Shown here: positions 11,171 to 36,852 of the stretch, piece by piece
Numbering within the stretch: the first letter of the stretch is position 1
Layout: each line of letters begins with the position of its first letter
Assembly: GCA_918797485.1 (NCBI GenBank)
Contig: CAKKNE010000005.1
Location: forward strand, 3,224,001 to 3,288,000
Length of the DNA: 64,000 nt
Source of the DNA: Pelagomonas calceolata
Lineage: Eukaryota
Direction of reading: 5' to 3'
Notes under the pieces: generated by a model
What the model was told of the DNA's origin: nothing
What the model saw: the letters and a program-made list of their open reading frames with translations, nothing else
Databases searched by the model: none
Position numbers and translations under genes: made by a program

Positions 11171-11646
11171 GGTTTGCTGTGCAGCTCTCCGAGGAGCGCA
11201 AGGCAGCAGCGGGCAGCAGTAGTGCTGGACGGCTGGGCACGGCAGCTATTTGCACAAATGTGCCAGCACGCTGCAAGCAAAGCTCGTGAAATCGCGCGTG
11301 GGCCCGCGAAACCCGTTTTTTCTCCCGCCGGAGGCGGGCTTCTTCGCGCGAAACCGACTCGTCTGCAGCCGGGGGGATGTATCTATGCGTCGTCGTGTCA
11401 AAGTGATGCTCGATCCCCAACAACCAATCCCCAACAGCCAACAACCAACAACAGACGGAACACGGGACGACTCTGCTAACATGTTGCAGGTGGTTGCCCG
11501 TGTGAGTGAAGCGTGCGCAGCAAAACTGCACTAAACGACACCACCAATCCCTAAGCTGTGCACGCGAGAGGCTGCCCCAGTGCAGTCTGCTCCCTGTGAA
11601 AGGGCTGCCCCAGTGCAAGGTAGTTCTGCGACGCAAAGCTGCCAAA

Positions 11647-14600
11647 ATGCAGCCCATGCTCCTCGCCTTCCTTCTGAGCATCGCCGCCGCCGATGCGCTA
11701 GGTGTGGAGGTGGGCGGCGGCGGCGGCAGCGGCGGCTACTCGCAGATTGCAAAGCTGATGGCAGATGACGCCGCGGCGGACGACAATCTCGGCTACTTCG
11801 TGGCGATCGACGGAGATTTCGTCGTCGCCGGGGCCAGGGAACATTACTGGGGCCTCAATCCCGAGAATGGCTCTGCGTATGTCTTCCGTACGACTGACGG
11901 CGGCCAAACGTATGGCCAGGTGGTCAAGCTGATGCCCTCCGACAGCGAAGGGGGCGACAAATTTGGCGAAATCGTCGGGATCGATGGGGACACCATCGTG
12001 GTCTCGGCCGGCTACAAGGACGGCGGCGACGAGTGCTACCAGTACGGCTATCAGGAAACAGGCGCAGATTGTGAACAAGGCGCAGTCTACATCTTCCGCA
12101 CGAGCAACGGCTGGGGCACGTACACAGAGACCAAGCTGACGGCAGCTGACGGCGCCGCCGAAGACAATTTCGGCCGCTCCGTGGCGATCGAAGGCAATAC
12201 GGTCGTGGTCGGGGCCCAAGGCGTGGACGACGCCGGCCTATCCTCGGGCGCGGTCTACGTCTTTACCACGAGCGATGGTTGGAACACCTACACGGAGAAC
12301 AAGCTGACGGCCTCAGACGCCGCGGAGTCCGATAACTTCGGCTGGTCGGTGGCAATCGCCGGCGGGGTTGTCGTCGTTGGCGCCTACGGCGTCAACACAC
12401 AAACGGGGGCGATCTACGTCTTCCGCACGAGCGACGGCTGGAACACGCACACAGAGATCAAGCTGACGGCCTCCGACGCCGCTTCAGGCGACCAATTCGG
12501 CCTCTCCGTGGCGATCGACGGCAACACCGTCGTGGTCGGGGCCCGCTTAGACGACGATGACGGCTCCGGCTCGGGCTCGGTCTACGTCTTCCTCACGAGC
12601 GACGGTGGCGCCTCGTACGACGAGGTGGCCAAGCTCAAGGCTCACAACGCCGCGGAGAATGACTACTTCGGCGGCTCCGTGGCGATCGACGGCGGCACGA
12701 TTGCGGTCGGAGCCTACCGCAAGGGAAGCAAGAAGGGTAGTTATGTGGGTGCGGCCTACATCTTCTCCAGCGACGACGGCACTCATTATGACCAGATCGC
12801 CAACCTAACGGCCGCCGACGCCGCGGCGAACGCAAATTTCGGTAGCTCCGTGGCCATCGCCGACGGGAAGGTCGTCGTTGGGGCCGCCGAGGACGACGAC
12901 GGCGGCACCGATTCAGGCGCGGTCTACATCTTCGCGACGCCGAGCCCATCACCGCTGCCGACGCCGTTGCCCACGCCGATACCAACCCCACTACCCTCGA
13001 CGGCCGCCCCGTCGCCGGCGCCGTCGCCGCTACCCTCGACGGCCGCCCCGTCGCCGGCGCCGTCGCCGCTACCCTCGACGGCCGCCCCGTCGCCGGCGCC
13101 GTCGCCGCTACCCTCGACGGCCGCCCCGTCGCCGGCGCCGTCGCGATTGCCGTCGCCGGCGCCCTCCGAGGCGCCCACGAGCGAGCCCTCGCCTTCTCCG
13201 ACGACGGCCGCGCCGAGCGTGGTGCCGACCTCTGGACCGGCCCCCCAGCCTACACCTAGACCGACGCCCGAGCCGTCGCCGAGGCCTACCCCCAGACCGA
13301 CGGCGGAACCCTCCGCCGCGCCCAGCCGCGTGCCGACGTCGCGGCCCACGGCCGTCCCGACCAATTATACGGCACCCGTCGAGGAAGAAACGCACGAGGA
13401 GCTGGCCGAGGACGGCGCGACGGCGGTGACCACCGCCGTCGTCGTGACGGTCGCGACGTCGACGGCCGCCGCCGTGGCGGGCGCCACGGGCGCCAGCGCC
13501 GGAGGGGCCGCCGCGGGCGCCGGCGGGGCCGCCGCCGCGGGCGGCGCCAGTGGCGGCGGCGCCGGGGCCGGCACGACGTCCGCGGGCGCCGCGGGCGAGC
13601 TCCTGAGCGTCATCGCCCAGGTCCAGTTCGTCGTCCTGACCGCCTCGCTGTCGGCGCCGCTCACGTCGGGCGTCCGCGTCCTCGGCAATTCGCTGCGCTG
13701 GTCGCTGTTCCAGGTAAACCTGCCGATCATCCCCCGGTTCGGGAAGCGCTTCGTCGAGGCGCCGGCGGAGCGCCGGCGCCTCGATGAGGCCGAGGACGCG
13801 GAGGCGCTCGAAGAAAACGAGGTCGAAGCGGAGGACGGCGTCGGCTCCTACCTCGCGGCGACGGGGCGGTCCGCGGAGGAGCTCTTCGTGCAGACGATCA
13901 TCGGCGGCCTCGTCTTCGCGATGCTGTACCTCGCGGTCCTCACGCTCCTGAACGACTGGTACGCGCGGCGCCACGACGGCGAGGAGCTGCCCGGGCACCT
14001 GCGGCCGCCGGCCCCGGAGATCGCGCTGTTCTTCGTCTATTCGACCGGCGCGCTCCAGACGTCGTTCTTCATCCTGGCGCTGCCGGACCCGACGGCCGTG
14101 TGGAAGACGCTGGCCGTCGTCCTCGCGCTCGTCATCCTGGGCATCGGCGCGCCGATCATGCTCCTAGTGCTCAACCCCGTCGAGGAGAACAAGCTGTGCT
14201 CGTGGCGCGCGCGGCAGCGCATCGTGCACATCGTCTCGCCGCGGACCCCCATGCTCCAGCAGTCCGGCGGGCACGGCGCGTTCTTCGAGAGCCCGCGCCG
14301 GCCGGCGCCGGGCGGCGCGCCGCCGGACCCCGAGCTGCCCGATGGGACGCTCTCGTCCGTGCGGCGCGACGTGCAGGCGTCGTCGACGCGGATGAGCGAC
14401 GACGGACGCGTGGTCTTCGTGCTCGCCGACCCGGAGGTGGCGACGTGGCGGGACCGGTGGCGGCGGATGTGGCGCGACCCGCAGCACACGCTCGGGGAGT
14501 GGCAGGGCGTGGACGGCGCCTACGCGTCGTGGCTCGTGGCGTCGTTCCCGATCGCCTTCGACCGCCTGACGCACGCCGTGTCGTTCCTGTTGTTCGAGTT

Positions 14601-15723
14601 CACCGTGGACAAGATTCTGGTGCTCGTGCTCATCGTGGCGCTAAGAGGTCAGGCGTCCAAGACGCAGGTGGCCCTGCTCCTCACTTTGATGGTCGTCCGG
14701 GGCCTCTTCATCTTCTTCTTCCTGCCCTTCAATTCCATGTTCGTGAACATCCGCGAGACCGTGGTCAACGCGCTCCGATGCGTCGCGCTCGCCGTGCCCC
14801 TCGTCGCGATGGCGGACCCCGAGTTGCTGTCGTTGAACAAGGCCTCGGAGATCGCCATCCTGCTGCACGTCATCGCGACGCTCCTCTCGTGCGCGCTGCA
14901 GCTGCTGGCGACGGCGGCGGCCAGCGTGGCGCTGTGGTGCGAGGAGGGCTCGGGCGCGCACGCGAAGGGCGGCGCCGCGGCGCGCCTGTCGTCCGCGGCC
15001 GCGGTCTGCGCCGCGGAGGCGATGCTCGAGCCGTTTTTGACGTACAAAACGGCGTTTCAGGACGCGCGGGACGCGGAGCCGCGACCGTCCGTACGAGAAG
15101 CGCACGACATAGCCCTCCATGCAGCATTTCCGGAAGTCGTCGGCACGGAGGGCGAGAGCCTCACCGAGGCGGCCATCGGGAGCTTCGTCGCCGCCATCGT
15201 GTGCGAGAAACTGCCCGAGAAGGACCCCGCGTTCCTCGCGCTCCCGCGCCCGGAGCTCGAGGAGTACGCGGCGTACGCCGTGTCCGTGGCCGTGGGCCGC
15301 GTCTTCGGGCGCGCGGTCAAGTACGTCGAGCGCGGCGGCGACATCGCCACGCTTGCGGGGCCAGGGGCGGCCGCGGGCGGCGACGAGCCGCCGCGCCTCG
15401 TGTACTACCACGACCCGATCCTCCAGCGGCTCTGGCGGCCCTTCACGATGACGGAGACGTCGCGCTCCTTCAAGAAACGGAAAGAGGAGCCGTCGCCACC
15501 CGCCGGGGCGGCCGACGAGGCGGCTGCCCACGCGTCGGTCGTCGCGGTGGACGCGACGAAGCCCGACGCCGACGACGCCGCACCGGCGGCGGCTCCGCCC
15601 GACGCCGGCGAGGTCGGGTGGTTTGGCCGCCTGCGCCGACGTCTCGCGGGCGACCCGGACGTCGTCGAGGTGAGCGTCGAGGGCTTCTCCGAGTCCGAGG
15701 ACGAAGTCGAGAACTTGTGGTGA
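11647..15723 (+). CDS. Cell-surface protein: signal peptide, FG-GAP beta-propeller, Pro/Ser/Thr stalk, multi-pass TM region
   Basis: About seven KLTAxDxAxxDxFGxSVAIxGxTVVVGA...GAVYVF repeats, a PSPAPS stalk and several hydrophobic helices; ATG at 11647. Confidence 0.88.
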   Translation: MQPMLLAFLLSIAAADALGVEVGGGGGSGGYSQIAKLMADDAAADDNLGYFVAIDGDFVVAGAREHYWGLNPENGSAYVFRTTDGGQTYGQVVKLMPSDSEGGDKFGEIVGIDGDTIVVSAGYKDGGDECYQYGYQETGADCEQGAVYIFRTSNGWGTYTETKLTAADGAAEDNFGRSVAIEGNTVVVGAQGVDDAGLSSGAVYVFTTSDGWNTYTENKLTASDAAESDNFGWSVAIAGGVVVVGAYGVNTQTGAIYVFRTSDGWNTHTEIKLTASDAASGDQFGLSVAIDGNTVVVGARLDDDDGSGSGSVYVFLTSDGGASYDEVAKLKAHNAAENDYFGGSVAIDGGTIAVGAYRKGSKKGSYVGAAYIFSSDDGTHYDQIANLTAADAAANANFGSSVAIADGKVVVGAAEDDDGGTDSGAVYIFATPSPSPLPTPLPTPIPTPLPSTAAPSPAPSPLPSTAAPSPAPSPLPSTAAPSPAPSPLPSTAAPSPAPSRLPSPAPSEAPTSEPSPSPTTAAPSVVPTSGPAPQPTPRPTPEPSPRPTPRPTAEPSAAPSRVPTSRPTAVPTNYTAPVEEETHEELAEDGATAVTTAVVVTVATSTAAAVAGATGASAGGAAAGAGGAAAAGGASGGGAGAGTTSAGAAGELLSVIAQVQFVVLTASLSAPLTSGVRVLGNSLRWSLFQVNLPIIPRFGKRFVEAPAERRRLDEAEDAEALEENEVEAEDGVGSYLAATGRSAEELFVQTIIGGLVFAMLYLAVLTLLNDWYARRHDGEELPGHLRPPAPEIALFFVYSTGALQTSFFILALPDPTAVWKTLAVVLALVILGIGAPIMLLVLNPVEENKLCSWRARQRIVHIVSPRTPMLQQSGGHGAFFESPRRPAPGGAPPDPELPDGTLSSVRRDVQASSTRMSDDGRVVFVLADPEVATWRDRWRRMWRDPQHTLGEWQGVDGAYASWLVASFPIAFDRLTHAVSFLLFEFTVDKILVLVLIVALRGQASKTQVALLLTLMVVRGLFIFFFLPFNSMFVNIRETVVNALRCVALAVPLVAMADPELLSLNKASEIAILLHVIATLLSCALQLLATAAASVALWCEEGSGAHAKGGAAARLSSAAAVCAAEAMLEPFLTYKTAFQDARDAEPRPSVREAHDIALHAAFPEVVGTEGESLTEAAIGSFVAAIVCEKLPEKDPAFLALPRPELEEYAAYAVSVAVGRVFGRAVKYVERGGDIATLAGPGAAAGGDEPPRLVYYHDPILQRLWRPFTMTETSRSFKKRKEEPSPPAGAADEAAAHASVVAVDATKPDADDAAPAAAPPDAGEVGWFGRLRRRLAGDPDVVEVSVEGFSESEDEVENLW
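12991..13143 (+). repeat. 39-nt coding tandem repeat x~4 (LPSTAAPSPAPSP)
   Basis: CTACCCTCGACGGCCGCCCCGTCGCCGGCGCCGTCG starts at 12991, 13030, 13069 and 13108. Confidence 0.92.
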
Positions 15724-15785
15724 GTGGCCACATTGTGTCGCCACAGTCGTCCGCCCGTCGCCCCCGATAAGTACAGTCTTAAGTC

Positions 15786-18700
15786 TTAGAACCCCGCGTT
15801 CCGCGCCCGCCCGCGCAGCGCGAGCAGCACGACGATGGCCGCCGAGTAGAGGAACATGTAGAAGAGCGACGGCGTGATCACGAGGGCCTTGCCGAAGACG
15901 CCCGCGGTGCACCGGTCCATCAGCGACGGCTTGGCCTTAGCTTTGGTCACGCTCTTGTGGAAGAACATGGCTGCCGACGGCACGGCCGTCAGCGAGAGGA
16001 AGACGAAGCTCATGACGACGCCGAGCCAGCGCTCGATCTCGTCGAAAGGTTTTTTCGCCGTGCCGATTCTGACTAATCCAACGACGATCGACGACGACAG
16101 CATGACCATCATGGTCAGGACCCACAATTTGGCGGTCGTGATTGCATTGATGGAGTCGAAGGACGCCCACCTGCTCGCATCCTTGGCCGCGAACAGAATC
16201 TTCCAGCTGTCCTGGGTGCCCTGGAAGATGGCTAATGTATGGAGCGGCGCCGTCACGAAGAACATCTGCTGAGCCCGCAATAAACCGAGTTTGTCGGGCG
16301 CCTGGTTGTTCTCGAGGGGCGCCCACGCCGCGATGTGCCCATATATGTAGTTCATGTGCACCTCGACCCAGAGCCCGCCGATCGTCAACGTCACCGCGTC
16401 GTACGTCAAAGCCGACGGGTCCGGCGCCATCGTCATGACGCAGGGGATCGCGAGCCAGAAGTAGGCCGTCTGGGACGAGAAGAAGTACGTGATGTTCTCG
16501 AACATGATGAGGTTGGCGCCGATGCGCGGATTGTTGAACGACGCGACGCTCATGAGGACCATATATATACCGTAACACACGAAGATCGGGTCGCTGATCA
16601 GACCGACCTGTGTGGAAATCAGTGAATCGGGTGCATTCAGATAATTCTTCACTAAGTCCTTTCTCGGCGAGAACGCGGCCGTGCTGACTGAATCGAGCAG
16701 TGGGAGACCACAAGGCCACGCCATCGAGCCGATTGCGTCGATGGCGTGGATGTCATGATTGAGTGGCGGACGCGCCGCGACAATTTGATTTATGCACTGA
16801 GACAGGCAGTCGGGCCCAGGCGGCACCACTGATCGTCCTTGTCGACACCCAGCGTCGCCCACATTTTTGATGAGTACTTCGTGCGGTGGCACTTATCTAA
16901 CCGCGTGGCTTGGAAGTAGATGACCGTGGCCATGATGGGCGCGACGACGAAAAACAAGACCAGCCACGGGTAGAGGTAGCGATGCAGGGGGAACCAGAAC
17001 GACGTCCAGGAGAGCTGCACCGCGCCCTTCGACCAGCGGAACACGGCGGCCACGTAGTCCGCCGTGCCCTTCCTCGCGCCTAATACTAATCTCTTGAACA
17101 GGTAGACGCCCTTCCGGCCGGCGACGATGGCCTCGTGCGACGACGCCGTGTCCTCGATCATCGTTTCTTCGTTAAATTTGTGCGCCAATGGCGTCGTGGC
17201 ATCCAACAATGGGTAGTTCCAGACGGCGTTCGTGCCGCAGCTCGTGATCGCGCCGACGCCCGTCCGCACGGTGTTGGCCATTCTAAATAAATACTCGTTC
17301 CTCATGTCAAAAAAGTCCTCGCGGATCGACAGACCCGTGAACGTCTGCGGGAGCTGCACGAACGCGACCTTGGGGTTGATCTCGAGCTCAGCTGACCACG
17401 GGTTGTTCGGATTCGTATATCTATAAAACTGGGGCACAATCGAATCCCAGAAGCCCTCGAGCGCCATGTGCCGACAGTCAAAAATCGCAAATAGTAAATG
17501 ACCGACCTGCTTCGCGTCGGCCGCGTCCCGCGAGTAGTCCCGCCGCTTCCTTACTCTCCTCATCGTCCGCGAGTAGTGGTGCAGGTACCCATTAACCACC
17601 GCGACGGCGTGGTTCATGCCTCCCGACTTCCCGCGGCACTCGCGGAGCGGCTCGACGACGTCGATCGGCAGCACGGCCTCGAAGTCCCGTTTTTTGGCTT
17701 CATGGATCGACGCCTTGCCCCTTTCTATAATGCGCGAGTCCCGCTTCTCTTCACTAAGACAGCAGAGCGTCTCCATACATCCGCTCGACCCTCTCCAGTG
17801 AAAGGCGGCGTCGGGCATGGCCGCGAGCAGTTCCGGCGTGCACTCCTTCAATTTAACATGTTTGACGCCGTCGATGGACGCGAAGCCCACGACGCGCGCG
17901 TGGCACCGCCGCGCTTCCGGGTACGTCAGCATTCTTTGAGATGTCTTGCAGATTAATGCACTGGAAGACGTCTCATCTTTCAAGCGCACGAACGTGTCCA
18001 CCCTGACACCCCGCACCTCCCTTACTTTAAATCCCGAGGCCCTCTTGATGTCCTCGGGGTTGGCCCGCGCCGAATAGCACATGACTACGGTCCTGAACAA
18101 GTCTCCCCGTTCCCCGGCGTCCGAGTAATAATGGACCTCGGCCGTGCGGAACTGCGTGAAGTCGAACCGCTTCGGCCACTTCGTCCGACCCTGCTCGTTA
18201 TACAACTCGTACCACGCGTCCCAGACCCTCCTACTGATAGCGGCGTCGTCCATGGGCGCGACGCCCGGCGAGAAGGGGTGCAGGCCCTTCTTCCTGGCCG
18301 TCTTCCAGTTCTTCGCCCAGGTTCTTAAACACCGCTCCGCGTCCTCGTTGCCCGCGAGGTCGCACATGCCGACCACTTTCACCTGCGGGTCGCTGTACCA
18401 GAAGCAGTGGTGGCCCAGCGCATTTAATAAATCGAAGCAGTAGAAGGCCAGCTCCAATTGCTGCGCGTCCTCGCGGGAAACGCCGTAGTCGCCGATCAGA
18501 CTCCTGAGCGAATCGTCCAGCAGCACCCCTGACTCTAATTCCTTATCTAAGGTGTCTACCGACGCATCCATGTCCTTCATCTTCTCGGCCATCTTCGCGA
18601 GGAAGCGCAAATCACCATGATCGACCACATTGGCAAACGCCGCCCAGAGAGCAAAGGCCCCAACCCGATGGCCCTCGTCCTGGAAGATGTCGATCATCTC

Positions 18701-21700
18701 CACATATTCATCTAAGCGCCGTTCCGCCGAGATTGTTTGACTTGATTCTTTTCTCGCCCGTCTCAGTTCCCTTTGGCTTCGGGGCGGCGGTTCCGGGCCG
18801 TATTTGTGCACGAGCTCGGTCATCAGCTCCTCCTCTTTACCTTTGTACTTTTTTAGTAAGGCAAAGACGCCGTCTACTTTCATGGGGTCGTATTTGGAAT
18901 AGAACGCTTTTAAGCGCTCGGTATAGGCCATATTTGTATCCTCACTGATCCGAACTCGCGTCGGACTATGTAGATGTTTCAGGGACGACTCCTCCTCGAA
19001 CAACTGGACCTTCTGCGTCATCGCTTGGCTTTCAAACACAAATTTTCTCCTTACAACCCAGGCCATCATCTTGCCCACCAAGTTCCGTAGCACCATCATC
19101 CTAGGCTCGGAGGCCGAGATGGAGAACGCCACGAGACAAAGGGGGTTCTGCGTCTCGGCATTCAACTCCATGTGGTCTTCCACTTCCCGCATCGTCGGGG
19201 GTAGCGGATCTTTATTGACGCCCGTGCCGGGTAGAAACGTAACCCAAGCAGAAGTGCCCATGATCGTCATCATTAATACAAAGAGCACGTGTAACGCGTA
19301 CTTCCACCCTTTCAACTCAAAATGGCCGTCGACCCAGCGCTTCCTTTGGCGCTTTTTTATCTGTGGACCTTCCGTGATGCCCCACTCGACGGCCGTCCTC
19401 TTTGACACTAATTTGTCCAGGGGGATTTCGCCGTCGACGCAGAACTCCTCATCCTCAATAACATTACGAGCAGCTTTCCCGCACGTGCCGCCGCACTTCG
19501 ACCCGATGGCCACACACCGGTCGTCGAAAGGCGGCCCTCGTTGCGGCTGGTAGTACCAGAAGTTCTCCGTGATGTCGTGGGGGTATTCCGGCGTTAAGCA
19601 TGCCACCAAGTAGGTGTAGGTGGGCATGCCGATGCAGCACGTCGACAGGTGGCCGTCGACGATGTCGCGCTCGTAGTCCAAAAACGCCTGGAACTCGTCG
19701 TCCAGGATCGGCTGGATGTCGGAGACCATTTCGGTTTGCGTGCCTTTTGTGGTTGTGGCCGACGTGTCCGTCGTCGCTTCCACGGCCTGCTGGTAGGACG
19801 TGATCTTCGAGCCGGCACTCGCCCCCATGATGAAGTCGTCGAGCTCGGGCGGCGGGTCCGTGCACACGTCGACGGTCTGGTTCAGGGCATCTCTGAGTCC
19901 CGTGAAGACGCCGCTATGCGACACCTGGAACCAATCACTAAAATCGAAGGACGCGTAGAGCGTGACGTATGAGGCACTTCTTACATCTGGAATGTTCTCT
20001 TGCGTAAAGTTCGTGACCTCGGCGGCCACGGGGAACGTGACGTCCTGGCCGTTCGGGCAGACCTCGCAGAGCTCGGACGGCCCGTCCCAGGGCGTGGGGG
20101 CTGGCGTCGGTTTCGGGACTGGCCGCGGCGTTGGTGAAGAAGTGTTCGCACTGGCAGGCGAGGGCGCCGGCGTCAGCGTCGGCAATAACGTGGGCGGGTG
20201 CGTATAATCGGACGCGTAACTGTCAAGATCGACGGCCGGGTAGTCGTCGTCGTCCAACGGAATGGACCACGTGATGTTGGTCAAAGCGGAGGGGCACTTG
20301 ACGCGCCTAAACCGCACGTAGGGGTTGTTCGTCGGGTCCGGCTTGGCCTGGGGATTGTCGTGCTGCTTGTAGGCGTCGCCGAAGCGCCACTTGCACCCAT
20401 CTCTCAAATCGGGGCCGGAGCCGGGCGGGAAGTCCGTGTCGTCCGGGAGCGCGTCGCAATCTGCTATATCATAACATCCGCCGTAGTTGTTGCCACAGTC
20501 GAAGTCCTCCGTAGCCCAGGACGTGCCTTGGGACGGGACGTTCGCGAACTGCGCGGCGCAGCCTGAATCGAAAATTCCTTGCCCGGCGCCCGGGATCTGC
20601 AAATCAAAAGAATGGTCTCCCGAGACGTCGTACCCGATGTTCGTCACCTGGACGATGTGGGACTTGCCCACAATATCAGAATGGGCGCCGCCCCCGTAAC
20701 TATGCTGCCCGTCGGTCCAGACGAGCTCGAAGCACTGGCCGCAGTTCTGGTCGCCGTTTAAGTAGGGGTGGCCCCCCGTCGACGCCGCCGCGAAACCTAA
20801 TGACACGCCGTCGTTGTGGGTCCAGGGTTTGTTGGATGTGCACGAGGCCGCCGTGCCGCCGTCACACACAGAACCCTCGTTGAAGTCTAACGTCACTTTG
20901 CCCGTCTCGGCCGAGCACGCGCGCACCGGCGAATCGACCAGACCCTTGCCGGGCCAGCTGCAGCTCGGCTTGCAGCAGTCCCAGTAGCCCGTCGTGTACG
21001 TGCCGTCGTACCACGTCGATGCTTTGACGCCCGTCGAGACGTAGGCGGCGGCGTCGTCTTCAGTGGAGTCGTCGCGGCCCTCCTCGCGATCGCGCTTCGC
21101 GTGCACCTTGGCCACGTAATCGGGGTCGAAGGACGGCACTTTGAGTTCTAAACCGACGTTGCCGTTGAAGACCGAGACCGGCGTGTTCGGCAGGTACTGT
21201 CGTTCTATCGAGATCAATTTCAGCCACACGGGCAGCCAGACCACGATGTTTAGTAATGCCAGCGTATAGAGCACCCGTCCGGTCCAAGGTTTTGATACCT
21301 GATGGTCCACGCGCGGCGCCACGTACGAGTGGGCCTCGGACTTTCTTCTATTCCGGCCGTAGCCGACGTGGCCCCGCGCGCCGTGGATCGTCGTCTTCGC
21401 CTCGACCGCTCGCAACCCCAGCACCTTATCCTTGCTCTTCTTGTTCGCCGTCGACGACAGGCCCATGGTCTTGAGCGCGTTCCACAGGGAGCCCCGATAT
21501 TTATCATCCCCGTCGTCATCCGTCGTGAGGAGCGCCGTCCGCGCGTCGATGCTCCCGGCGCGCGGCCGGTCCACCTGGAGCGACGGGCGGCCCGCCGAGA
21601 TCTGCGACCCGAGCCGCGGCAGGTAGCGCTCGCGCTGGCTGAGGGACTTGCGCATGAGGGGCTCGTCCTCGGCGGTCGCCGCGAGGTCCGTGGTCTCGTC

Positions 21701-22015
21701 GAAGACATCTTCCGCGTCCTCGGGCGTCGACTTCGCCGTGCCCGTCAGCCGCGCGAAGAAGCCCTCGCTCGCGGGCGCCGGCGCGGCCGGCGCCTCGGCG
21801 TCGTCGTCATCATAATTAAAGCTGATCGTGCTGTCGGCCTCGGAGGGCCGCGAGCCGGACGAGGCGACGCTGAACAGCGAGCCCCGCGTGGCGGCCGGGG
21901 CCTCCGTGGCCAGCGGCGCCTGGCTCTGGCTGAAGGAGCTGCGGTCGCGCACGCGGCGCGGCGGCGGCGGGGCTGCGGGCACAAAGGAGGGTGCCTCCTT
22001 GGTTTCCTCGGCCAT
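15786..22015 (-). CDS. GH45 endoglucanase - cellulose-synthase-like GT2 fusion (~2009 aa); exons 22015-16808 and 16607-15786
   Basis: GH45: TTGYWDCCKPSCSW, CGQCFEL, VQVTNIG, HSFDLQIPGAGQGIF, FRRVKCP. GT2: DEG, GKSGGMN, IFDCRH, FVQLPQTF, SCGTNAV, IED, AVFRWSKG, followed by a TM bundle. The two ORFs join in frame (RLGPT|VGLISDP) across a GC-AG intron. Confidence 0.88.
16608..16807 (-). mobile_element. Introner intron (200 nt, GC-AG)
   Basis: TSD GCCTGTCT (intronic) vs GTCGGTCT (exonic), 6/8; starts CAGTGCATAAATCAAATTGTCGCG, ends TGATTTCCACACAG; homologous to 62016-62173. Confidence 0.88.
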
Positions 22016-22330
22016 GGCTGCGGCTGCTGCCCTTTGCTGCCCTGTGTTTGAAAGGGTCTGCAGGAATTACCAGAGCTTTCGAGATCGAGACTGCGGCCAA
22101 CCAAATATTTTCCCAGAATCGGAGGGGGGGGGAAAAGGGGCGCGCCGAGGACCCGTCCACGGCGGCTCTCAACTCTCAGGCAACAGCTCTACAGATACCT
22201 GCTTCATATTCGCAGCGACGCCAGATCGCCGCCGCGAGCTTCGAGCAAGCTGGGTTCTGCAGCGGGCTTGTGCTGGGCTGAAAGCAAGCCGCGGCGCTTG
22301 GACGCTGCCACGGCCACATTTCCCGCACCA

Positions 22331-25300
22331 ATGAGGCTGCCCCATGCAGTGCTCTTGGCTGCCATGCAGCTTGGTGCTGCTGTAGCTCAGCCGACGGCGC
22401 AGCCGACGACGCCAAGGCCGACGCCCAAGCCGACGCCGGGGCCGAGTGTGACGCCTGGGAACCCGACGGCCATGCCGGTACCCGCGCCAACGCTGAAGCC
22501 GACGCTGGCGCCTTACCCGCTGCCGACGCCGCGCCCGTCGGCCGCGCCGATGCCGGTGCCGACGATAGAGTCGTGCGAAATGGTCCGACTGCGCACGGGC
22601 CCGCCGCCGAACGTGTACTCGGCCCGGTTCGCGTCGACGGGCGCGAGCATCCTCGTCGACCTCGACGCGGTGTCCGACATGGGGGGCAGGCTCGCGGGCG
22701 AGTACTTTCCGTGCGCCGCGCTCCTCGACTTCGCCGACGTCGACACGGCGGAGTGCGTCTGGGTCAGCGCGACGCAGATCTCCGCCGAGGTCAACAAAGC
22801 GCTCAATTTCGTACCGGGCGAGAATGTGACGCTCCGAGCCCAAACTACGATGCTCGCGTGCGACGACGACCGCTGCGACTGTCGCGTGGGCAACACCGCG
22901 TCGAGCGTGCCGGCGACCCCCCCGGACCCGCTGCCCGACGTCGAACCGGTCTTCCAGGTGCCCGACTCGATCGCCCTTTGCGAGGAAGGCGGCCTCGCAG
23001 TCGACGCGTCGCAGTCGATCGGCTCGGGCGGCCGCGACTGGACGCGACTCGTGTGGTCCGTGAACGCGACGGGTCCGCCGGGGCCGAAGGTGAACGGCAC
23101 TGCAAACGCGACCTTTGCCCTGCTCTATATGCAATATAGAGCAACGACCGTCCTCTCGTCCGAATTCACCGCAGAGACGACCGAGCTGCAAGCGCTCGCC
23201 ATAGGGGGCTTCGACACGCTCGTCCTGTCCCTGGAACTCGAGAACTTCCTGGGTAGCACAAAAACAGAGTCCGTGGAAGTGGCGCTCTCGACGAAGTCGA
23301 TCCCGTCGGTCCTCATCGTCGGCGGCGCCAACCAAGTGGCGAGGGTCGGCGACGCGCTGACCGTCGAGGCGTCGGGGCTCGCGTCGGGCTGCGACGGGCG
23401 CAGCAAGGCGCAGCGCGCGGTCGACTACGCGTGGAGCCTCTACCGCCTCGACGGCGTCGACGACCCGGAGGAGGATTGGACGCAACTCGCCGAGGGCGCC
23501 GAGTTCGTCGCCGTCGGTAATTGCGAGTGCACGGGAACGCAGGGCTTTGACCCCTGGGACACCTCTGGGGCCGAGTGCGCCGCGGCGGGCTGCGTGTCCT
23601 ATCCTCCCCTCAATTCATTCGCACTCGAAGCTCTGGAGGGCTACCTCACGCCCGAGGACGCGGCGTCGACGGGCAACGGCACGCGGCGGCGCCTCACCGG
23701 CTCAGCCTACCCGTATTGCCAATGCTGCGAAGCCGCTTGCGCCTCCGTCGGGGGCCACTGGGAGTGCGGCGAGGCGGGCCCCGAGTTCAAGCTCGACCCG
23801 TTTTCGCTCGACTCCGGTACGACGTACGTCGCGCGCGTGGAGGCCACCGACACCAAGTATGACCTCTCCAACACGGCGGACGTCTACCTCGCCGTCGGCG
23901 TCGGCAGCGTCGTCGCGGCGATCGAGGGCGGCGACCGCGTCGTGTCCGTCCAGGACGAGCTGCAGCTCGACGCGTCCTCGTCCTTCGACGAGGACATCAA
24001 CGCGGACTGCGGCGACGGCGCGGGCGACTGGCGGGCGAACTTTGGCCGGCGCAGACTCGCTCATAACGATCAGCACGGGGCGGGCGCCACGGGCGACTGC
24101 GGCACGGGCGACGACGCGGGCCTGTCGTTCTCCTGGATCTGCGAGGAGCTCGCGGTACTCGACGACGGGACGAAACAAGTAAACGGAAGCTGCGCCACCG
24201 ACACCGAACCCTTCCCGACGGGCGTCTGGGCCTTGAAGTCGGTTGAGCAGCGGCTGATTTTCTTGGGCACTTGGCTCGGCACGGGCCATTACCGCTTCAC
24301 GGTGACGGCTACGTCGGCCGATGCTAGGAGCTCCACCACCTCCGTCGACATCGAACTCATCAACGAGGAGCCGAGCAAGGTCGTCGTGTCGAACTTCGCC
24401 CGGAAGGTAAATTCGGCGGAGCGGCAGACGATCCTGGGCATCGTCACGCCGCCCGACGGCGTGGTGATCGACGACCTCACGACGACGTGGACGCTCGCCG
24501 AGGGCTACCTCGCGGCCGACCAGACGCTCCAGGAGGTCTCCAGGACCGTGCTCGAGCTCCAGGCCTCGGGCCAGCGGTATCACGACCTCGTACTCGACCC
24601 CGGCGCGCTGGTGCCCGGCGGGACGTACAAGTTCCTCCTCACCGCGACGCTGACGCCGGAGACCGGCGACACGACCGAGGGCTACGCGAGCGTCGTCGTG
24701 GCGGTGTCGGCGCTGCCGTCGGCGGGCGTCGTCGCGGCGTCGCCGCGCAAGGGCTTGGAGCTCGAGACGCCGTTCGAGCTCGTCGCGAGCTACTGGGTCG
24801 GCGACGAGCTGCCGCTCAAGTACGGCTACGAGACGGGCGAAGCGGTCCTCCGGAGGCCGACGGCCGACCCGAAGCTCTCGGACGTGCGCCTCTCGGTGCC
24901 CGTGGCGACGACGAGCGAGCCCGGGGATGATTATTATGATTGGTGGCACAACGTCACGTTCTACGTCGTGGTCGTCGACCAGGTCGGCGCCACGGGCCAG
25001 GGCGAGACGTCGGTCGCGGTCTTGGAGAACGTCCTGGAGCCAGAGGCGCTCGCGAACCTGACGAACGAGCTCCTCTCCAATGCGTTCGCTACCGCGGACC
25101 TCCCGGGCGGGGCCGCGTGCCCGGCCGCTGACGTCGGGCCCCTAGATCCGACGCCGAATCCGACGACAAGCCCGATGCCGACGCCGGCGCCGGGCGATTG
25201 CGTCTCAGACGACTTCGAGGGGCCGAGCCTCGGCAACCAGTGGACGGCCACCGACGCCGGCGGCGACGGCAACTACGTCGTCGGTGGCGGCGCGATCACG

Positions 25301-26656
25301 TTCAGCGGCTTCTCCGGTCTCAACCACGTCCGCAGCGTCCGGACCTTTTCGGCGCCCTTCGGCTTCCGCGGGGTGGGTTCCGCAGCGTCCGCCTGCTGCT
25401 ACCACTACGTCGCGCTCTCGACGGAGCCGGTCGACGCGGCCAACGCGTGGTCCGGCGGCCCGGGGGTCGTGCGCTTCATTTACCATTGCGGCAAAATCTT
25501 CATCTACGGCCAGTCTGCCACGGCGGATTCAAACTGTGCGCTGAACACGTCGCACAACGACGTCGAGGTCAGAGTCCTCGACTCGGAGCTGACGTTTTCC
25601 GCGGGCGCGTGCGAGCTGAGCCTCGCGGACGGCATTGGCGCGTCGGGCCCCCTCTACGTGTTCTTCGGCGGGGGAAGCTACGGCGAGCCGGCCGTGTGGC
25701 ACGCGGCGAGCGTGTGTCCGGGGGCTTACGCGCCGACCGCGGCGCCAAGTTTCGCTCCGACGCCGGGCCCGACCACGAACTACGCCCCGACGCCCGCCCC
25801 GTCTCTGGCGCCGACTCTGGCGCCTACGACGGCGCGGCCGACGACGCCACAACCGACGCCGGTGCCGACAGAAGCTCCGGTCGTCACCGGCGCCGTCGCG
25901 CTCTCGGGGATCACGGTGGCGGAGGCGGAGAGCTCCAAGGCCGTTCTCCGGGACGCCATCGCCCAAGTCGCGGGCGTGGCCACGGAGGCCGTGACGATCC
26001 TGAGCGTGGCGTCGGCCCGCCGCCGCCTCCAGGAAGGCGGTGTCGTCGTCGCGTACAAGATAGAGTCGAACGATTTCGCCGAGGCGGCGGACGCCGCCGA
26101 CAAGCTCCAGGCCGCGGCCGACGACCCCTCGGTCGTAGATACTGCGATCGAAGAAGCTGCGAAGGACGCGAACGCGGAGGCAGTTTTTGCGGGCGTCAGC
26201 ACCGAGTCGCTCACGTACGACGTCGTCGCCGCGACCGACGCGCCGACCGTAGCGCCCACGACGTACTGGGACAACAAGAAAAAGAGGAAAGAGGACACCC
26301 GCCTCTTGATCGTGATCATCGTCTGCGCCGTCGCCGGCTGCTGTTGCCTCGCGGCATTGTCGATGGCCTGTTTCGCCAAGCACAAAAAGTCCCCGGAGCC
26401 GCCGCCGATCAAGGCCCCGCCGATCTCCCTGGGCGGCGTGGACGTCGACGTCGGGGAGGAGTTGTTGTGCTCGCCCCGCCGTGTCGGCAAGATCTACGCG
26501 CCCCTCGCGGCCTGGTACAACGCGCCTGAGCGCGCCGCGCTGCGCGCTAAGCACGGACCTCTTCCCCTTTCTCCCGACGCGTTCAGAAAGTGGCCGGCGA
26601 TGAATTTAGTTACCATGGCCTTCCTCGACGACCAGGGCGTGCCTCCAGCCTTTTAG
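22331..26656 (+). CDS. Single-pass cell-surface protein with REJ/PKD-like region and Pro/Thr-rich linkers
   Basis: Signal peptide, PTPAPT repeats, VAAIEGGDRVV...LDASSSFDED, LSFSWIC, PSAGVVAASPRKG..LETPFEL...LPLKYGY, and a TM helix near the C-terminus. Confidence 0.8.
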   Translation: MRLPHAVLLAAMQLGAAVAQPTAQPTTPRPTPKPTPGPSVTPGNPTAMPVPAPTLKPTLAPYPLPTPRPSAAPMPVPTIESCEMVRLRTGPPPNVYSARFASTGASILVDLDAVSDMGGRLAGEYFPCAALLDFADVDTAECVWVSATQISAEVNKALNFVPGENVTLRAQTTMLACDDDRCDCRVGNTASSVPATPPDPLPDVEPVFQVPDSIALCEEGGLAVDASQSIGSGGRDWTRLVWSVNATGPPGPKVNGTANATFALLYMQYRATTVLSSEFTAETTELQALAIGGFDTLVLSLELENFLGSTKTESVEVALSTKSIPSVLIVGGANQVARVGDALTVEASGLASGCDGRSKAQRAVDYAWSLYRLDGVDDPEEDWTQLAEGAEFVAVGNCECTGTQGFDPWDTSGAECAAAGCVSYPPLNSFALEALEGYLTPEDAASTGNGTRRRLTGSAYPYCQCCEAACASVGGHWECGEAGPEFKLDPFSLDSGTTYVARVEATDTKYDLSNTADVYLAVGVGSVVAAIEGGDRVVSVQDELQLDASSSFDEDINADCGDGAGDWRANFGRRRLAHNDQHGAGATGDCGTGDDAGLSFSWICEELAVLDDGTKQVNGSCATDTEPFPTGVWALKSVEQRLIFLGTWLGTGHYRFTVTATSADARSSTTSVDIELINEEPSKVVVSNFARKVNSAERQTILGIVTPPDGVVIDDLTTTWTLAEGYLAADQTLQEVSRTVLELQASGQRYHDLVLDPGALVPGGTYKFLLTATLTPETGDTTEGYASVVVAVSALPSAGVVAASPRKGLELETPFELVASYWVGDELPLKYGYETGEAVLRRPTADPKLSDVRLSVPVATTSEPGDDYYDWWHNVTFYVVVVDQVGATGQGETSVAVLENVLEPEALANLTNELLSNAFATADLPGGAACPAADVGPLDPTPNPTTSPMPTPAPGDCVSDDFEGPSLGNQWTATDAGGDGNYVVGGGAITFSGFSGLNHVRSVRTFSAPFGFRGVGSAASACCYHYVALSTEPVDAANAWSGGPGVVRFIYHCGKIFIYGQSATADSNCALNTSHNDVEVRVLDSELTFSAGACELSLADGIGASGPLYVFFGGGSYGEPAVWHAASVCPGAYAPTAAPSFAPTPGPTTNYAPTPAPSLAPTLAPTTARPTTPQPTPVPTEAPVVTGAVALSGITVAEAESSKAVLRDAIAQVAGVATEAVTILSVASARRRLQEGGVVVAYKIESNDFAEAADAADKLQAAADDPSVVDTAIEEAAKDANAEAVFAGVSTESLTYDVVAATDAPTVAPTTYWDNKKKRKEDTRLLIVIIVCAVAGCCCLAALSMACFAKHKKSPEPPPIKAPPISLGGVDVDVGEELLCSPRRVGKIYAPLAAWYNAPERAALRAKHGPLPLSPDAFRKWPAMNLVTMAFLDDQGVPPAF

Positions 26657-26779: not shown

Positions 26780-29170
26780 TTACTTTCGAGTCTTCGACTG
26801 CTTCTTCCGCGCCAGGAAGCGCGCCCGCGCCGCGTCGACCGCCTGGCCGCTGTCGACGACCGGCGCTGCCGCCGTCGCAGACGACGCCGCCGGCGCCGCG
26901 GCCGCCGTCGCAGCCACCACCACCGGGGCCTTCGTGGAAGCCTCCTTGCCACACAGCAGGCCCACGTCCGCCGTCCCCACGCGCTTCCGACACTTCTTCA
27001 GCCATTTCCCGTCGACCACGACCACGTTCCGCGCGAAGGAGCCCTTCGCGTGGCGGTTGACCCGTAACTCGTGGAAGCAGATGTGGTCCGGCGGCCGGCT
27101 CATCGGCGCCTCCGTCTCGGCGTCTAATCGAACGAGCGACTTCTCCGGTTTGTTTTCTTGAACGTGGGCCGACGCCGACGGTAGCAATAAGTAGGCGTCG
27201 TTCAACGTCCGTTCGGCCGCGTTCAGGCACAGGCCCGCCGCCAGCGCGCGGCACACCTCGTCCAAATCCACTCTTCCATCCGAAGACTCCCGCCTCCTCT
27301 TGTTCTCGCGCCGCTCGCACCGCGCGAGCTCCGCATCTAACTGATCTCGTGCCTTCCGCGCGAACCGTAAAGCTCGATCTCTTAATGAATGCTTTCTAGC
27401 GAAGGTCCGCTCGCCTCCCGAGCGACAGGCGCGCTCGTACTCCGAGAAGACCACTAGTAATGAGATGAGATCACCTCTAGGGTGCCGGAACCGCGCGTGG
27501 GCGTCCAGCGCCTCGTCGCGGAGCTGGTCCGCGGCGTCGCGCCGCGCGGACGGCGCGCCCCGCCGGTCCGACGCCTTGCCCCCGACGTACCAGACGTCCT
27601 CGGCCGAGAGCATCGCCACCACTGCCAAAACGGCGTTGCGCACCGTAGGGTCCGTCGTCCCTTCGCCCGTGAAGTGGACGCTCTCCAGAGCTGCTCGTGC
27701 GAGATCCGGTTCCAACGCTAACGAGGCCATCGCATGACCCAATGGCGTCAGGATACCGTGGGACTCCAGCGCCCCGAGCGCGTGAAGCTCTAACAAAGCA
27801 CACGCTAATTGCTTCTGGTCCGGCGCGTCCAAGAAATCGAAGCCCAACACATCTACAATTCTCAACGATTTCAGAGCCAAGGCCACCGACGCCATCGACG
27901 ACCGGCGGATTTCCGGGATCGTCTCAGGGGCCATCGCATCAAAACACGCCTTCGAGTACAATCGATAACACTGGCCCGCCTCGGTTCGGCCCGCGCGACC
28001 CGCGCGCTGCTCCGCAGCAATTTTGGAAATAGGTACTACTACTAATGATGCCACGGCTCGTTCCGGATCGTAGCCCTTTTGTTTCACATAACCGGGGTCC
28101 ACCACATACTTGACACCCGGTACGGTGAGCGACGTCTCAGCAATATTTGTGGCCACGACGACCTTTCTAATTTGCGACGCATCCACGGCATCGAAAACCC
28201 TATCTGCGGCCTCCTGCGGCAAGGCACCGTACAAAGGTAGCACGAGCATCGCCGGTCCTCTTTCACCTACTACTATAGTATCTTCCAGTTTAGCGGCTTC
28301 CCTCCTCAGCGCCTGGCACGCATTCTCGATCTCGTCCTGGCCCGTTAAGAATATTAAAATATGTCCTTCATTCTGCGACTTGTGGATCTGCACCGCGACG
28401 TCGACGGCTGCCGATACATACCTCTTGTCGGCGGGGCCGAAGCGCGTCATCGGCTGCTGCTGCTTGCTGTGGTAGATGTCTACCGGGTGGGAGCGGCCGG
28501 GCACTCGTAATACCGGAGCGCCGTCGAAGTACTGGCTGAACCTCGCTGCGTCTAGTGTGGCTGAGGCGACGACGCATCTCAGTTTATCATTTGTAGATTT
28601 TCTCAATTCAACAGCTTGCTTGACCAGCCCGAACAACACGTCGGTGTCCACAGATCTCTCATGGGCTTCATCTAAGACAATAGTTTTGTACTTTGTCAGG
28701 CGGCCGTCGCCCACGCACTCTCGCACTAAAACCCCGTCCGTCATAAAGGTCAATTTCGTGGCCCGCTGCGCTACACTATCAAACCGCACCTTGTAGCCTA
28801 CTTCCTCACCTCCCAGCGTGACGGCGCGCTCCTCCGCGACTCGTCGCGAAACACTCGTCGCGGCGACGCGTCGAGGCTGCGTGATGGCCACCGGCGCGAA
28901 CGTGTCGTTGTCTGTCCTTGATTCGTCGTCCTCCAGCAGGTAGGCCGGTAATTGTGTGGTTTTACCACTACCAGTGTCGCCCACCACGACCAAAAAGTCG
29001 TGCTCTCGCAGTAATCGCACGATGTCCGCGCGCGCGCCGGCGATGGGCAGGTCCGGGTTCGTCTTCGAGTTTGTTGGTATGGGGGGTGGCGGCGGCATCG
29101 CTGCGGCGTCCGCGGCGTCTGGGCGCGGCGGTGGCGGCATCGCGCCTGCGGCCGCGTCCGGAGTGCTCAT
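26780..29170 (-). CDS. DEAH-box RNA helicase (Prp16/Prp22/DHX40-like)
   Basis: GDTGSGKTTQ, TQPRRVAA, DEAHER, SAT, ATNIAETSLT, QRAGRAGR. Confidence 0.95.
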   Translation of the reverse strand: MSTPDAAAGAMPPPPRPDAADAAAMPPPPPIPTNSKTNPDLPIAGARADIVRLLREHDFLVVVGDTGSGKTTQLPAYLLEDDESRTDNDTFAPVAITQPRRVAATSVSRRVAEERAVTLGGEEVGYKVRFDSVAQRATKLTFMTDGVLVRECVGDGRLTKYKTIVLDEAHERSVDTDVLFGLVKQAVELRKSTNDKLRCVVASATLDAARFSQYFDGAPVLRVPGRSHPVDIYHSKQQQPMTRFGPADKRYVSAAVDVAVQIHKSQNEGHILIFLTGQDEIENACQALRREAAKLEDTIVVGERGPAMLVLPLYGALPQEAADRVFDAVDASQIRKVVVATNIAETSLTVPGVKYVVDPGYVKQKGYDPERAVASLVVVPISKIAAEQRAGRAGRTEAGQCYRLYSKACFDAMAPETIPEIRRSSMASVALALKSLRIVDVLGFDFLDAPDQKQLACALLELHALGALESHGILTPLGHAMASLALEPDLARAALESVHFTGEGTTDPTVRNAVLAVVAMLSAEDVWYVGGKASDRRGAPSARRDAADQLRDEALDAHARFRHPRGDLISLLVVFSEYERACRSGGERTFARKHSLRDRALRFARKARDQLDAELARCERRENKRRRESSDGRVDLDEVCRALAAGLCLNAAERTLNDAYLLLPSASAHVQENKPEKSLVRLDAETEAPMSRPPDHICFHELRVNRHAKGSFARNVVVVDGKWLKKCRKRVGTADVGLLCGKEASTKAPVVVAATAAAAPAASSATAAAPVVDSGQAVDAARARFLARKKQSKTRK

Positions 29171-29284
29171 GGCTCTCGTAAACGCTGTGGTTCGTTAGTC
29201 GGTAGTAAAATGTCTGCAGCGATGAGATCTTAAACGACGTAGTCTCTCGCGCGGCGAGCTGTGCAGCTCCCAAAATGGCTCGAG

Positions 29285-34865: not shown

Positions 34866-36852
34866 TCAAATCACCCCTAACGCCCTCAACCGCGGGCACA
34901 GCTTGCGGTGGCCCTTCTTCCAGTGCGAGGCCTGGCACTTGCGCGAGCAGTAGGCGACGCGGTGGCAGCCCGTGCAAGCCTTGACGGGGACTTGTTTGGT
35001 CGCGCGCGCGCCGCAGCACGCGCACGCGTGCTCGCCGTCGCAGACGTCGACGAGGACCACGGCGTCGTCCGGCGTCGACGACAACGTGGCGACGGCGTCG
35101 TCCTCGCCCTTCGCGAGGGACACGGCCGTCACCGTGCGCGTCTCCGAAAGAACGAACCGCGCCTGGACGAGCGAGACCTCGCCCAGACCCTTTGGCCCAT
35201 TCTTCGCTTCCGTCACCAAGCCGCGCATGGCGTGCAAGCAGGGTAACGCCTCCTGCGACGACGGCGTCTGCTGGCCCTTGTCGAATTCGATCGTAAACCG
35301 GCCCTCCTTCACTTGCGTCTTCACAAACAACCAGCCGCGCACGCTTAAAGCCAACTGGACCTCCTGGCCCAGCCACGAATCTGGTGGAGGCGTCTCACAC
35401 ACACTCGCGTAGTCGGCGCCGACGGCCGCGACCGCGGCCACGGCCGCGCCCCGTAACGCGGACGCCCAGCCTCGTAAGACGCGCCCGTGGCGGTCGCCGC
35501 GCGCCGCGAGGACGCCGTCCTTCACCGGTATCGTACTATGCAACCAGGCATCCACGGAATGGCCGAAGATCGGATCCGTCAGGGGTTCATACCCTAAATC
35601 ATCTTTGCCGGGAATTTTGTTAAGCAACTCCGAAGATGTAGAAGCGGTGTCGTCGAAGAAGCGACCGATGGCCGTCAAGGCCCGTAGGAACCCGCGCAGC
35701 GTGGTCTGCAGCCCCATCCCGAAGCCGGCCCACTCCTTGATATCGTCTGGATCGTCGTCCTCGAGCGCCAAGACTTGTTGTAAAGCTGGATTTAACACTT
35801 GTAGAGCCGAGGCGCGCCTCGCCCCATTGAGCTTGCGGATGCCTTCTCGTAATGCGTTGGCCAAACAAAGCGCCAGCGTCCCGTATTTCGGCAGGCCGGC
35901 GTGCCGCGCGTAGGCGACGTAACTCACCAACTCGTGGTCCTCGACCCGACCCTGGAGCAGGGGCTGAAATAAGAACGAGGGCGCCGGGCCGCGCGGCTCG
36001 ACGAAGACCTCGACGGCGTCCGCGTCGCCGGGCTCGACGCGCTGCCACGCCGCTATTAACTCATCTTTCCGATCTTCCCGTCTAGACAGGGCGAATAAAA
36101 CTTCGCAGCCGACGCGCTTGATGCCCTCGGTTAACTGTAAGGGGCGCATGCCCGGCTCCGCTACTACGAGAGACGCGCACGCGAGGGGCCCGTCCTGCGC
36201 GTGGGATCGACGCCGTCGACGCGATCCGCTATCGATGGCGTGGCGCTCGACGCCGTCGATGCGACCCCGAAACCATTGATGCCGCGTTGAAGGCACCCAA
36301 GACACACGGTGCGCGCACGGCCCAGGCCGCGTCCCATGCACCCGCTTCGCCCGCGGCCGCCTCTCTAATGGATTCCCAGCACGCATCCACTGCCTTTTCG
36401 CAGACCGGGCGGTTCGTCGGGCCCGTCGCGTCTATCTGATTCGAGACGAAGTACCGCGCGAGGGCCAGCCTCAAGTGCGTGCGCGACGCGAGGTCCTCCC
36501 GCAGCCGCGCGGAACACGTCGCGTCGAGCTTCTTGGCCACACGCGCGTGGGCGTACAACTGCGCCGCGTCGACGGACGGCCACGGGTCTTTCAGGTGTAG
36601 TATAGCTGCGGGGACCGCTTCAGCATCTTTCAGGTTTGAGGGCAGCTGCTCGCCCGCGAATAACGCGCCCGTCGGGCCCGGCGACGCGTGGCGCATGAGG
36701 CACCTTCTCTCGGTTGGCGTCAGCCATGTGGCGTCGCCGGGGATGGGGTTCTTGAGCTTCGCATCGCGCTTGCGCAGCGCGGCGTCGTACTTGTCGGGTC
36801 CGAGGCGCGTGGCGCCCTCTTTCGCCCAGTCGACGCCGGCGATTGTCGGCTC

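Follow-up and report, generated by a model that had tools for sequence, protein, structure and literature searches.

The 64,000-nt stretch of Pelagomonas calceolata DNA analysed here (contig CAKKNE010000005.1, positions 3,224,001 to 3,288,000; "the window" below means this whole stretch) contains on its minus strand a gene (22015-16808 + 16607-15786) whose 2009-aa product, of about 225 kDa, carries an endoglucanase module of glycoside hydrolase family 45 (GH45) within a membrane protein that resembles cellulose synthases. The GH45-synthase fusion is present in the DNA and in one mRNA; the architecture is real, expressed, and apparently undescribed. The parts of the gene, all on the minus strand, are listed below in window coordinates with their basis in brackets.

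16808..22015, minus strand: coding part of exon 1, aa 1-1736 (stop-free translation; sense polyA reads; RNA contig 16807-22087)
16608..16807, minus strand: 200-nt GC-AG intron, introner-like (spliced reads, contig, repeat copies in the window)
15786..16607, minus strand: coding part of exon 2, aa 1737-2009 and stop, with C-terminal membrane helices (RNA contig 15774-16606)
21284..22015, minus strand: low-complexity N-terminus, aa 1-244, predicted cytosolic, no signal peptide (hydropathy; sequon scan)
21200..21283, minus strand: first transmembrane helix (TM1), aa 245-272, with the family-conserved PxWLK motif (translation, alignment, motif spacing)
20081..21124, minus strand: lineage-restricted insertion of about 345 aa (about aa 298-645), comprising an acidic spacer, GH45 and a Pro/Thr linker (motif spacing; alignment gap)
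20216..21025, minus strand: GH45 endoglucanase module, aa 331-600, 14 Cys (Pfam; PDB matches; conserved columns)
19316..20080, minus strand: family ectodomain, aa 646-900, 10 Cys (alignment, Cys count, model of homologue P0018)
19217..19303, minus strand: second transmembrane helix (TM2), aa 905-933, running into the glycosyltransferase (GT) domain (translation, alignment, model)
17021..19138, minus strand: predicted CesA-like GT-A domain, about aa 960-1665, with long insertions (profile, fold, motif table)
18731..18958, minus strand: small helical insert, about aa 1020-1095 (absent in 11 aligned homologues; no Pfam family above cut-off)
15801..16987, minus strand: C-terminal membrane region, aa 1677-2005, interrupted by the intron (translation, profile, alignment, model)

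An earlier note on this DNA had proposed a protein of about 2009 aa after removal of one introner intron, a single mRNA across 16608-16807 and both domains, and a particular domain order; the translation has that order, and the other two proposals are borne out by the frames, spliced reads and assembled RNA. The minus-strand frame 16790-22066 is stop-free, its part from the ATG at 22015 to 16808 encodes 1736 aa, and translation of 16607-15789 appends a further 273 aa after the splice. Three polyA libraries made from one sample contain 79, 40 and 79 reads that skip exactly the intron (16807-16608), and a 6114-nt RNA contig from another study joins 22087-16807 to 16606-15774 with 0 differences and includes both modules; the RNA status of the run behind this contig is the tool's guess, while the contig itself is without the intron. 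Raw-read support thus comes from one sample, next to one contig from another study, the reads aligned to the locus being from 4 of 24 listed runs. Sense-strand depth is above zero in each 240-nt bin of 15641-21424 in all three libraries, with the 3' bias typical of polyA material; it is near zero across the GC-rich first 350 nt, where the contig is the main support, and dips at 19497-19737 (1.5, 11.4 and 14.3 across the three libraries). Read ends accumulate at 15777 in one library. Of the words sampled from this sequence, 57-95% are present in each of fifteen runs that share its organism code and belong to 5 studies, and about half are present in 5 marine metatranscriptomes. Homologues align unbroken over the splice, where RLGP is followed by VGLISDP (compare RLGPLFGLIFDP). 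It is highly improbable that the fusion is an artefact of assembly or annotation or that its halves belong to two separate transcripts: the 5.2-kb frame is uninterrupted, sequence of the synthase family flanks GH45 (TM1 before it, the ectodomain after it), and the spliced contig and the non-zero sense coverage span both, against which can be set the use of short reads only, the dip in depth, the absence of the window's own protein from the listed protein-search matches and the lack of a second GH45-bearing member among the 163 relatives considered below.

The GH45 module is sequence-complete and intact-looking, and endo-beta-1,4-glucanase activity is predicted for it. Pfam family PF02015 matches aa 340-581 (E 1.1e-36; 127.2 bits vs. 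a cut-off of 27; profile positions 3-210 of 214), and all 10 of the 10 PDB sequence matches are GH45-type endoglucanases, with whose motifs Asp346 and Asp471 align. These residues (positions 20980 and 20605) lie in YWDCCKPSC at aa 344 and HSFDLQIP at aa 468, the two motifs from which a complete module had been proposed earlier; the Asp residues of YWD and HxFD are the two catalytic residues of GH45. The module keeps 72 of the 77 columns that are conserved in at least 90% of 119 relatives, that is, 0.935 on a measure whose median among the relatives is 0.987 and whose lowest value is 0.844, which suggests an intact module with slight drift. The sequences nearest to it (59-63% identity) belong to free proteins, a number of which begin in the manner of a signal peptide and end in Pro/Thr tails, and in a quick tree of 123 rows the insert falls inside a 20-row group (SH-like approximate likelihood ratio test, SH-aLRT, 99) whose named members, one NCBI row aside, are Chrysophaeum taylorii and Aureococcus proteins. 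Judged from these sequences, the insert is akin to secreted pelagophyte GH45s; the nearest named relatives of both modules are pelagophyte, in line with the affinity suggested earlier. No GT2 (glycosyltransferase family 2) domain was found in the four other long GH45 proteins (4/4 matches of 954-3038 aa, the size range searched), and among the best 120 of 659 shorter GH45 matches, the 3 that aligned past GH45 were all without synthase-family flanks, being of secreted type or other.

One of these relatives, C. taylorii KAJ8613777.1 (P0024), has two GH45 domains among Cys-rich repeats; the second, in which WNCCK stands instead of WDCCK, is probably inactive. The neighbours of this gene, with locus tags 008856 and 008858, likewise encode GH45s.

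The synthase family itself is far wider than the fusion. There are 17 near homologues (1062-1955 aa; one named Pelagophyceae sp. CCMP2135), and a profile search of 1.84 billion representatives gave 742 matches at E <= 0.001, of which the best 150, 146 of them new, were listed; these make the 163 relatives counted here (P0003-P0019 and P0148-P0293), and "distant matches" below refers to the 146 new ones among the best 150 of the 742. GH45 was found neither by Pfam nor by a custom GH45 hidden Markov model in the 17 near homologues, nor in the 146 further matches (0/163 in total), a count whose weight is less than it seems, since the 146 include many fragments and the ectodomain is matched by only 16 of them; the representatives are clustered at 50% identity, and a close orthologue with GH45 could be hidden among them. 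The TM1 motif and the first CxxC of the ectodomain are 383 aa apart in the P. calceolata protein and 28-45 aa apart in 15/15 informative homologues. Alignment A1 has one clean gap at the GH45 site, which is likewise empty in L001, the one 3-kb genomic locus obtained in a metagenome scan. Trees nest the protein among GH45-free members with one state change; a placement outside the other close members is not rejected by the approximately unbiased test (p 0.062), so the exact nesting is unproven; both trees require at least one gain. The simplest account would be one gain event, with a secreted pelagophyte GH45 gene as the source. Since this widespread family is without GH45 in 163/163 relatives, the fusion appears to be a lineage-restricted add-on and not a general pelagophyte design. 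No second copy of either module was found within the 64-kb window.

Profile homology and predicted fold indicate that the synthase half is CesA/BcsA-like. Its GT motifs are QDEG (aa 1112), RGKSGGMN (1461), DCRH (1513), VQLPQTF (1553), SCGTN (1592), IED (1620-1622) and AVFRW (1657-1661). A single-sequence PDB search gave no GT2 match for this half, and of the profiles compared with the PDB the full-length A1 gave 0 matches and A5 weak ones only; with the core profile A2 (8 sequences), 13 of 13 matched rows were cellulose synthases (BcsA E 4.5e-6, plant CesA E 9e-6), and its alignment to BcsA pairs DCRH with DADH, IED with TED (Asp1622) and AVFRW with QRGRW. Homologues P0015 and P0018 match TIGR03030 weakly, far under its cut-off. 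When the predicted structure of aa 900-1736 was compared by VIA-align, soybean CesA1 (8vhz) ranked at the top (Z 18.3, root-mean-square deviation, rmsd, 4.7, 346 aligned residues), with barley CslF6 (Z 17.8) and E. coli BcsA (Z 16.6) next; the model of P0018, a compact homologue, aligned with CesA1 over the range 199-1029, which runs from first helix to last (Z 15.2, rmsd 3.8, 263 aligned). The C-terminal region comprises, in order, a predicted extra helix pair, CesA-like helices, an IF3-like LRAQQMF motif and three final helices.

In CesA-type enzymes the GT-A domain is cytosolic, and because this domain comes after TM2, the TM1-TM2 loop is predicted to be extracytoplasmic. The predicted topology is thus N-terminus in, loop out and GT domain in, with GH45 on the side opposite the GT domain, as the earlier note had it. 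The N-terminus has a peak 19-residue hydropathy of 0.57 and 0 N-glycosylation sequons, and the loop has no hydrophobic 19-mer above 1.22. The loop contains 24 Cys, 14 in GH45 and 10 of the family type, the latter found as 10 in 10/13 homologues, and 4 sequons, at Asn580, Asn624, Asn669 and Asn712, vs. 0 in the 733-aa GT part, weak evidence because the enrichment is inconsistent among homologues. The ectodomain of the P0018 model (245-375) resembles an Ig/FnIII-like beta-sandwich (Z ~7), which may reflect a common beta-sandwich only, and an Atlas search with the ectodomain gave no usable match. It is possible that the loop faces the outside of the plasma membrane or the Golgi lumen; the pelagophyte theca is described, in the part of PMC12168098 that concerns it, as assembled in Golgi vesicles.

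The two motifs that depart from the CesA pattern are shared by the relatives. The sequence D[CA]RH occurs in 17/17 near homologues and AxxRW in those that reach that site; among the distant matches, Arg stands at the second Asp of DxD in 89 of 96 aligned sequences, those of QxxRW type included, and the Gln position of QxxRW is Ala in 81/101 and Gln in 9/101. A quick family tree was built with 77 of 164 rows (at least 70% profile coverage, plus nine kept by hand), and an alignment of mixed families (A4) was discarded as misaligned. In the tree, 69 rows are grouped (SH-aLRT 97) and adjoin 7 QxxRW rows, the latter group appearing as sister to the AxxRW clade, with long branches and an uncertain deep order. 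Among the QxxRW rows is a Vaucheria litorea protein (EP00612_P003333, P0254) that combines DCRH with QVLRW and passes Pfam Cellulose_synt. Because DCRH occurs together with QxxRW, the DxR change probably predates the AxxRW clade and would not by itself mean loss of activity. Named clade members come from a pelagophyte, a dinoflagellate (Polykrikos kofoidii), Epipyxis and Gefionella, and on the strength of these comparisons the protist DxR/AxxRW CesA-like clade is old, widespread and almost entirely missed by Pfam. No relatives were found in viral contigs or prokaryote genomes by short-pattern scans, which are not proof of absence.

Another member of this clade appears to have joined a cellulase of a different family. 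The Polykrikos kofoidii protein P0160 (EukProt EP00927_Polykrikos_kofoidii_P027055, 1395 aa) has DARH, ALERW and a short TM1-TM2 loop, and at 1020-1299 it contains a GH5 cellulase (E 4.6e-42; PDB GH5 endoglucanases down to E 1e-67) with both Glu motifs, WDEP and VSEWG. Directly ahead of the GH5 domain is a helix that corresponds, in the alignment, to the last one proper to the family, where the sister protein P0155 stops without GH5. It is likely, from these alignments, that this is a second independent cellulase fusion in the DxR/AxxRW clade. Two different beta-1,4-endoglucanase families joined to the clade would point to a beta-1,4-glucan product.

The reading that we favour, and to which we give an even chance of being correct, is that the P. 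calceolata protein is a synthesise-and-trim enzyme, whose CesA-like GT2 would polymerise and export a glucan that GH45 cuts outside. The GT domain would polymerise a beta-1,4-linked, or partly beta-1,4-linked, glucan in the cytosol, presumably from UDP-glucose, and the Arg that replaces the second Asp of DxD would bind pyrophosphate in the absence of the customary metal contact. The glucan would move out through the protein's own membrane channel, and GH45 on its Pro/Thr tether might cut it on the outer or Golgi-lumen side. Such cutting of its own chain may set the chain length or free a soluble or gel-like cell-coat glucan, as opposed to microfibrils. Endoglucanases accompany cellulose deposition in plants and dinoflagellates, as stated in PMC9959387 where that topic is treated. 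More tentatively, we consider it possible that the whole clade, shared among marine protists, is active, perhaps metal-free, and makes beta-1,4-glucan coats in supposedly "CesA-less" algae, and that it has twice captured a working cellulase, so that one polypeptide would both make a glucan and cut it to length.

Several observations weigh against this reading. DxD, the metal-binding motif, reads DCRH and QxxRW reads AVFRW, so that both canonical motifs, which are described as conserved in CesA-type enzymes in the relevant passages of PMC6433935 and PMC6740014, are altered, and the FxVTxK motif of the gating loop was not seen in the synthase half. No match in the protein reaches the cut-offs of Pfam Cellulose_synt or Glyco_trans_2 or of NCBIfam CesA/GT2. 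The models are of modest confidence (mean predicted local distance difference test score, pLDDT, 64.5 for the AlphaFold model of aa 900-1736 and 45.8 for full-length P0018), and Foldseek with the P. calceolata model found nothing at E <= 0.001 (best 0.014), the top 10 rows, 9 of them cellulose synthases, all lying above that threshold. The 163/163 relatives without GH45 mean that this module is not needed for the function of the family. P0160 is known from one Trinity transcript of a predatory dinoflagellate, which could be a chimera or come from prey. As context only, a 2009 survey lists no CesA/Csl for Aureococcus in the section concerned (PMC3091534), and this brown-tide alga is described as wall-less, with a little understood glycocalyx, in the account given in PMC10720644.

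With two defining motifs and the Pfam cut-offs failed, we file the protein as CesA-like. The GT2 core proposed earlier holds in so far as this half is CesA-like by profile and fold, and needs amendment as to DxD and QxxRW, which are non-canonical; similarly, the Pfam scan that was expected to report both GH45 and GT2 on one protein reports GH45 and not GT2. Since that check alone fails for GT2, the GT2 assignment needs profile or fold comparison.

That the second Asp of DxD and the Gln of QxxRW are gone also raises the question of whether the GT2 half has no catalytic activity and acts as a scaffold, channel or sensor, with GH45 as the sole enzyme. We regard this as improbable. The distant members P0154 and P0157 have lost more of the active-site motifs (IDD or LDG for IED; RRV or RKI for RW) and are possibly inactive paralogues, which would fit such a course, but the distant matches keep the catalytic Asp in 100/107, the first DxD Asp in 94/96 and the Arg of RW in 99/101. 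The P. calceolata protein itself retains the catalytic-base Asp (IED, Asp1622) and the RW pair, together with 164 of 172 (95%) family-invariant columns within the compared stretch.

The product of a GT2 enzyme is not readable from its sequence, and the same two altered motifs, the long cytosolic insertions and the near tie of CslF6 with CesA1 in the fold search would be compatible with a synthase of a different polymer (mixed-linkage, mannan- or xylan-like, or non-glucose), in which GH45 cuts occasional beta-1,4-glucosyl stretches or only binds. Given that the nearest characterised sequence relatives are all cellulose synthases and that both fused hydrolases, GH45 and GH5, belong to cellulase families, we think this unlikely.

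It is also somewhat unlikely that both halves work but have separate targets, the synthase being used as a membrane anchor that displays an active cellulase, which would act irrespective of the nascent chain and remodel an older covering at division or digest external glucan. Nearly the whole of a secreted GH45, Pro/Thr tail included, is copied in the insert, and the synthase family can do without this module. Hydrophobic anchors at the C-terminus are already present in some GH45s of the pelagophyte clade (P0032, P0075); this can be taken as a precedent for anchoring, but simple anchoring is then already offered by single-helix GH45s, and the independent joining of another cellulase within this clade suggests that the hydrolase is coupled to what the synthase makes.

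The closest parallel is the tunicate CesA-GH6 protein, in which, as far as PMC6523144 and PMC7464555 describe it, a CesA-type GT2 and a cellulase-family domain are likewise in one chain with the hydrolase predicted outside. In these descriptions GH6 follows TM7, is without the catalytic Asp and is common to all tunicates, while in P. calceolata GH45 lies in the TM1-TM2 loop, keeps both catalytic Asp residues and is found in one lineage. A synthase-hydrolase fusion as such is hence already known, and what appears to be new, as far as the literature searched shows, is the GH45 partner, its TM1-TM2 position and the intact catalytic site. We found no description of a GH45-cellulose synthase/GT2 fusion in algae in the literature searched, which agrees with the earlier note, although tables of carbohydrate-active enzymes may hold a mention.

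Other known systems share parts of the arrangement. With plant CesA/CslF6 and BcsA (8vhz, 8dqk, 4p00, 5ej1) the P. calceolata protein has in common the GT-A core, KxGxxN, QxPQxF, CG, ED, RW and the IF3-like helix, and with the plant type the two helices ahead of the GT domain. It differs in having DCRH for DxDH and AVFRW for QxxRW, in falling below the Pfam/NCBIfam cut-offs, and in its extra parts, namely the TM1-TM2 ectodomain of about 300 aa, the predicted helix pair after the RW helix and the long cytosolic insertions. V. litorea P0254, a stramenopile CesA-like protein from the nearest group outside the family in profile search and tree, shares DCRH with it, but keeps QVLRW, passes Pfam Cellulose_synt and has no ectodomain or hydrolase. 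Humicola EGV-type GH45s (2eng/3eng/5h4u) and the 59-63% identical secreted GH45s of the pelagophyte clade (C. taylorii CTAYLR_008855/6/8, Aureococcus AURANDRAFT_5984) share both Asp motifs and the Cys pattern, and are free or single-anchor proteins without GT2. In the case of KORRIGAN GH9, BcsZ GH8 and dinoflagellate dCel1, a hydrolase also acts beside the synthase outside the membrane, but the genes are separate, BcsZ being a separate synthase-associated endoglucanase. Further synthase-hydrolase fusions, such as fungal Ags1 (GH13-GT5) and NdvB (GH17-GT2), involve different enzyme families and products.

Next to nothing is known of how the pelagophyte cell covering is composed chemically and which enzymes build it, and this gene and its family offer a concrete candidate synthase that Pfam misses. 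The role of synthase-associated endoglucanases such as KORRIGAN and BcsZ is a long-standing question, for which a natural single-chain version and its empty-site relatives would permit a direct comparison with and without the hydrolase. If active, the protein might be a one-protein source of short beta-glucan of practical use.

The 16608-16807 intron is introner-like in that it is spliced, short and part of a repeated sequence family; related copies lie in the window at 62024-62127, 36206-36244 and 61551-61581. It is of GC-AG type and holds an internal 34-nt imperfect palindrome, and reads of other loci stack on it. The joints 15581-21761, 16676-16769 and 16758-16769, considered as splice forms, were rejected, their reads coming from other loci (a GC-rich repeat and other copies of the intron). 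The insert of the GT domain at 18731-18958 consists of three helices over about 75 aa (YTERLKAFY...KYGPEP).

As to the neighbouring genes, 22331-26656 (plus strand) is arranged head-to-head with the fusion gene, with start codons about 316 bp apart, and encodes a secreted-type protein with a Pro/Thr linker, a REJ domain (E 3.5e-37) and one C-terminal membrane helix. The tail-to-tail neighbour at 11506-15723 (plus strand) encodes a large cell-surface protein with seven FG-GAP repeats, a Pro/Ser/Thr stalk and a multi-pass membrane region. A DEAH-box RNA helicase is encoded at 26780-29194 (minus strand), and at about 44322-50138 (plus strand) there is a repetitive-looking open frame of 1939 codons with strong AT and GC skew and long antisense frames.

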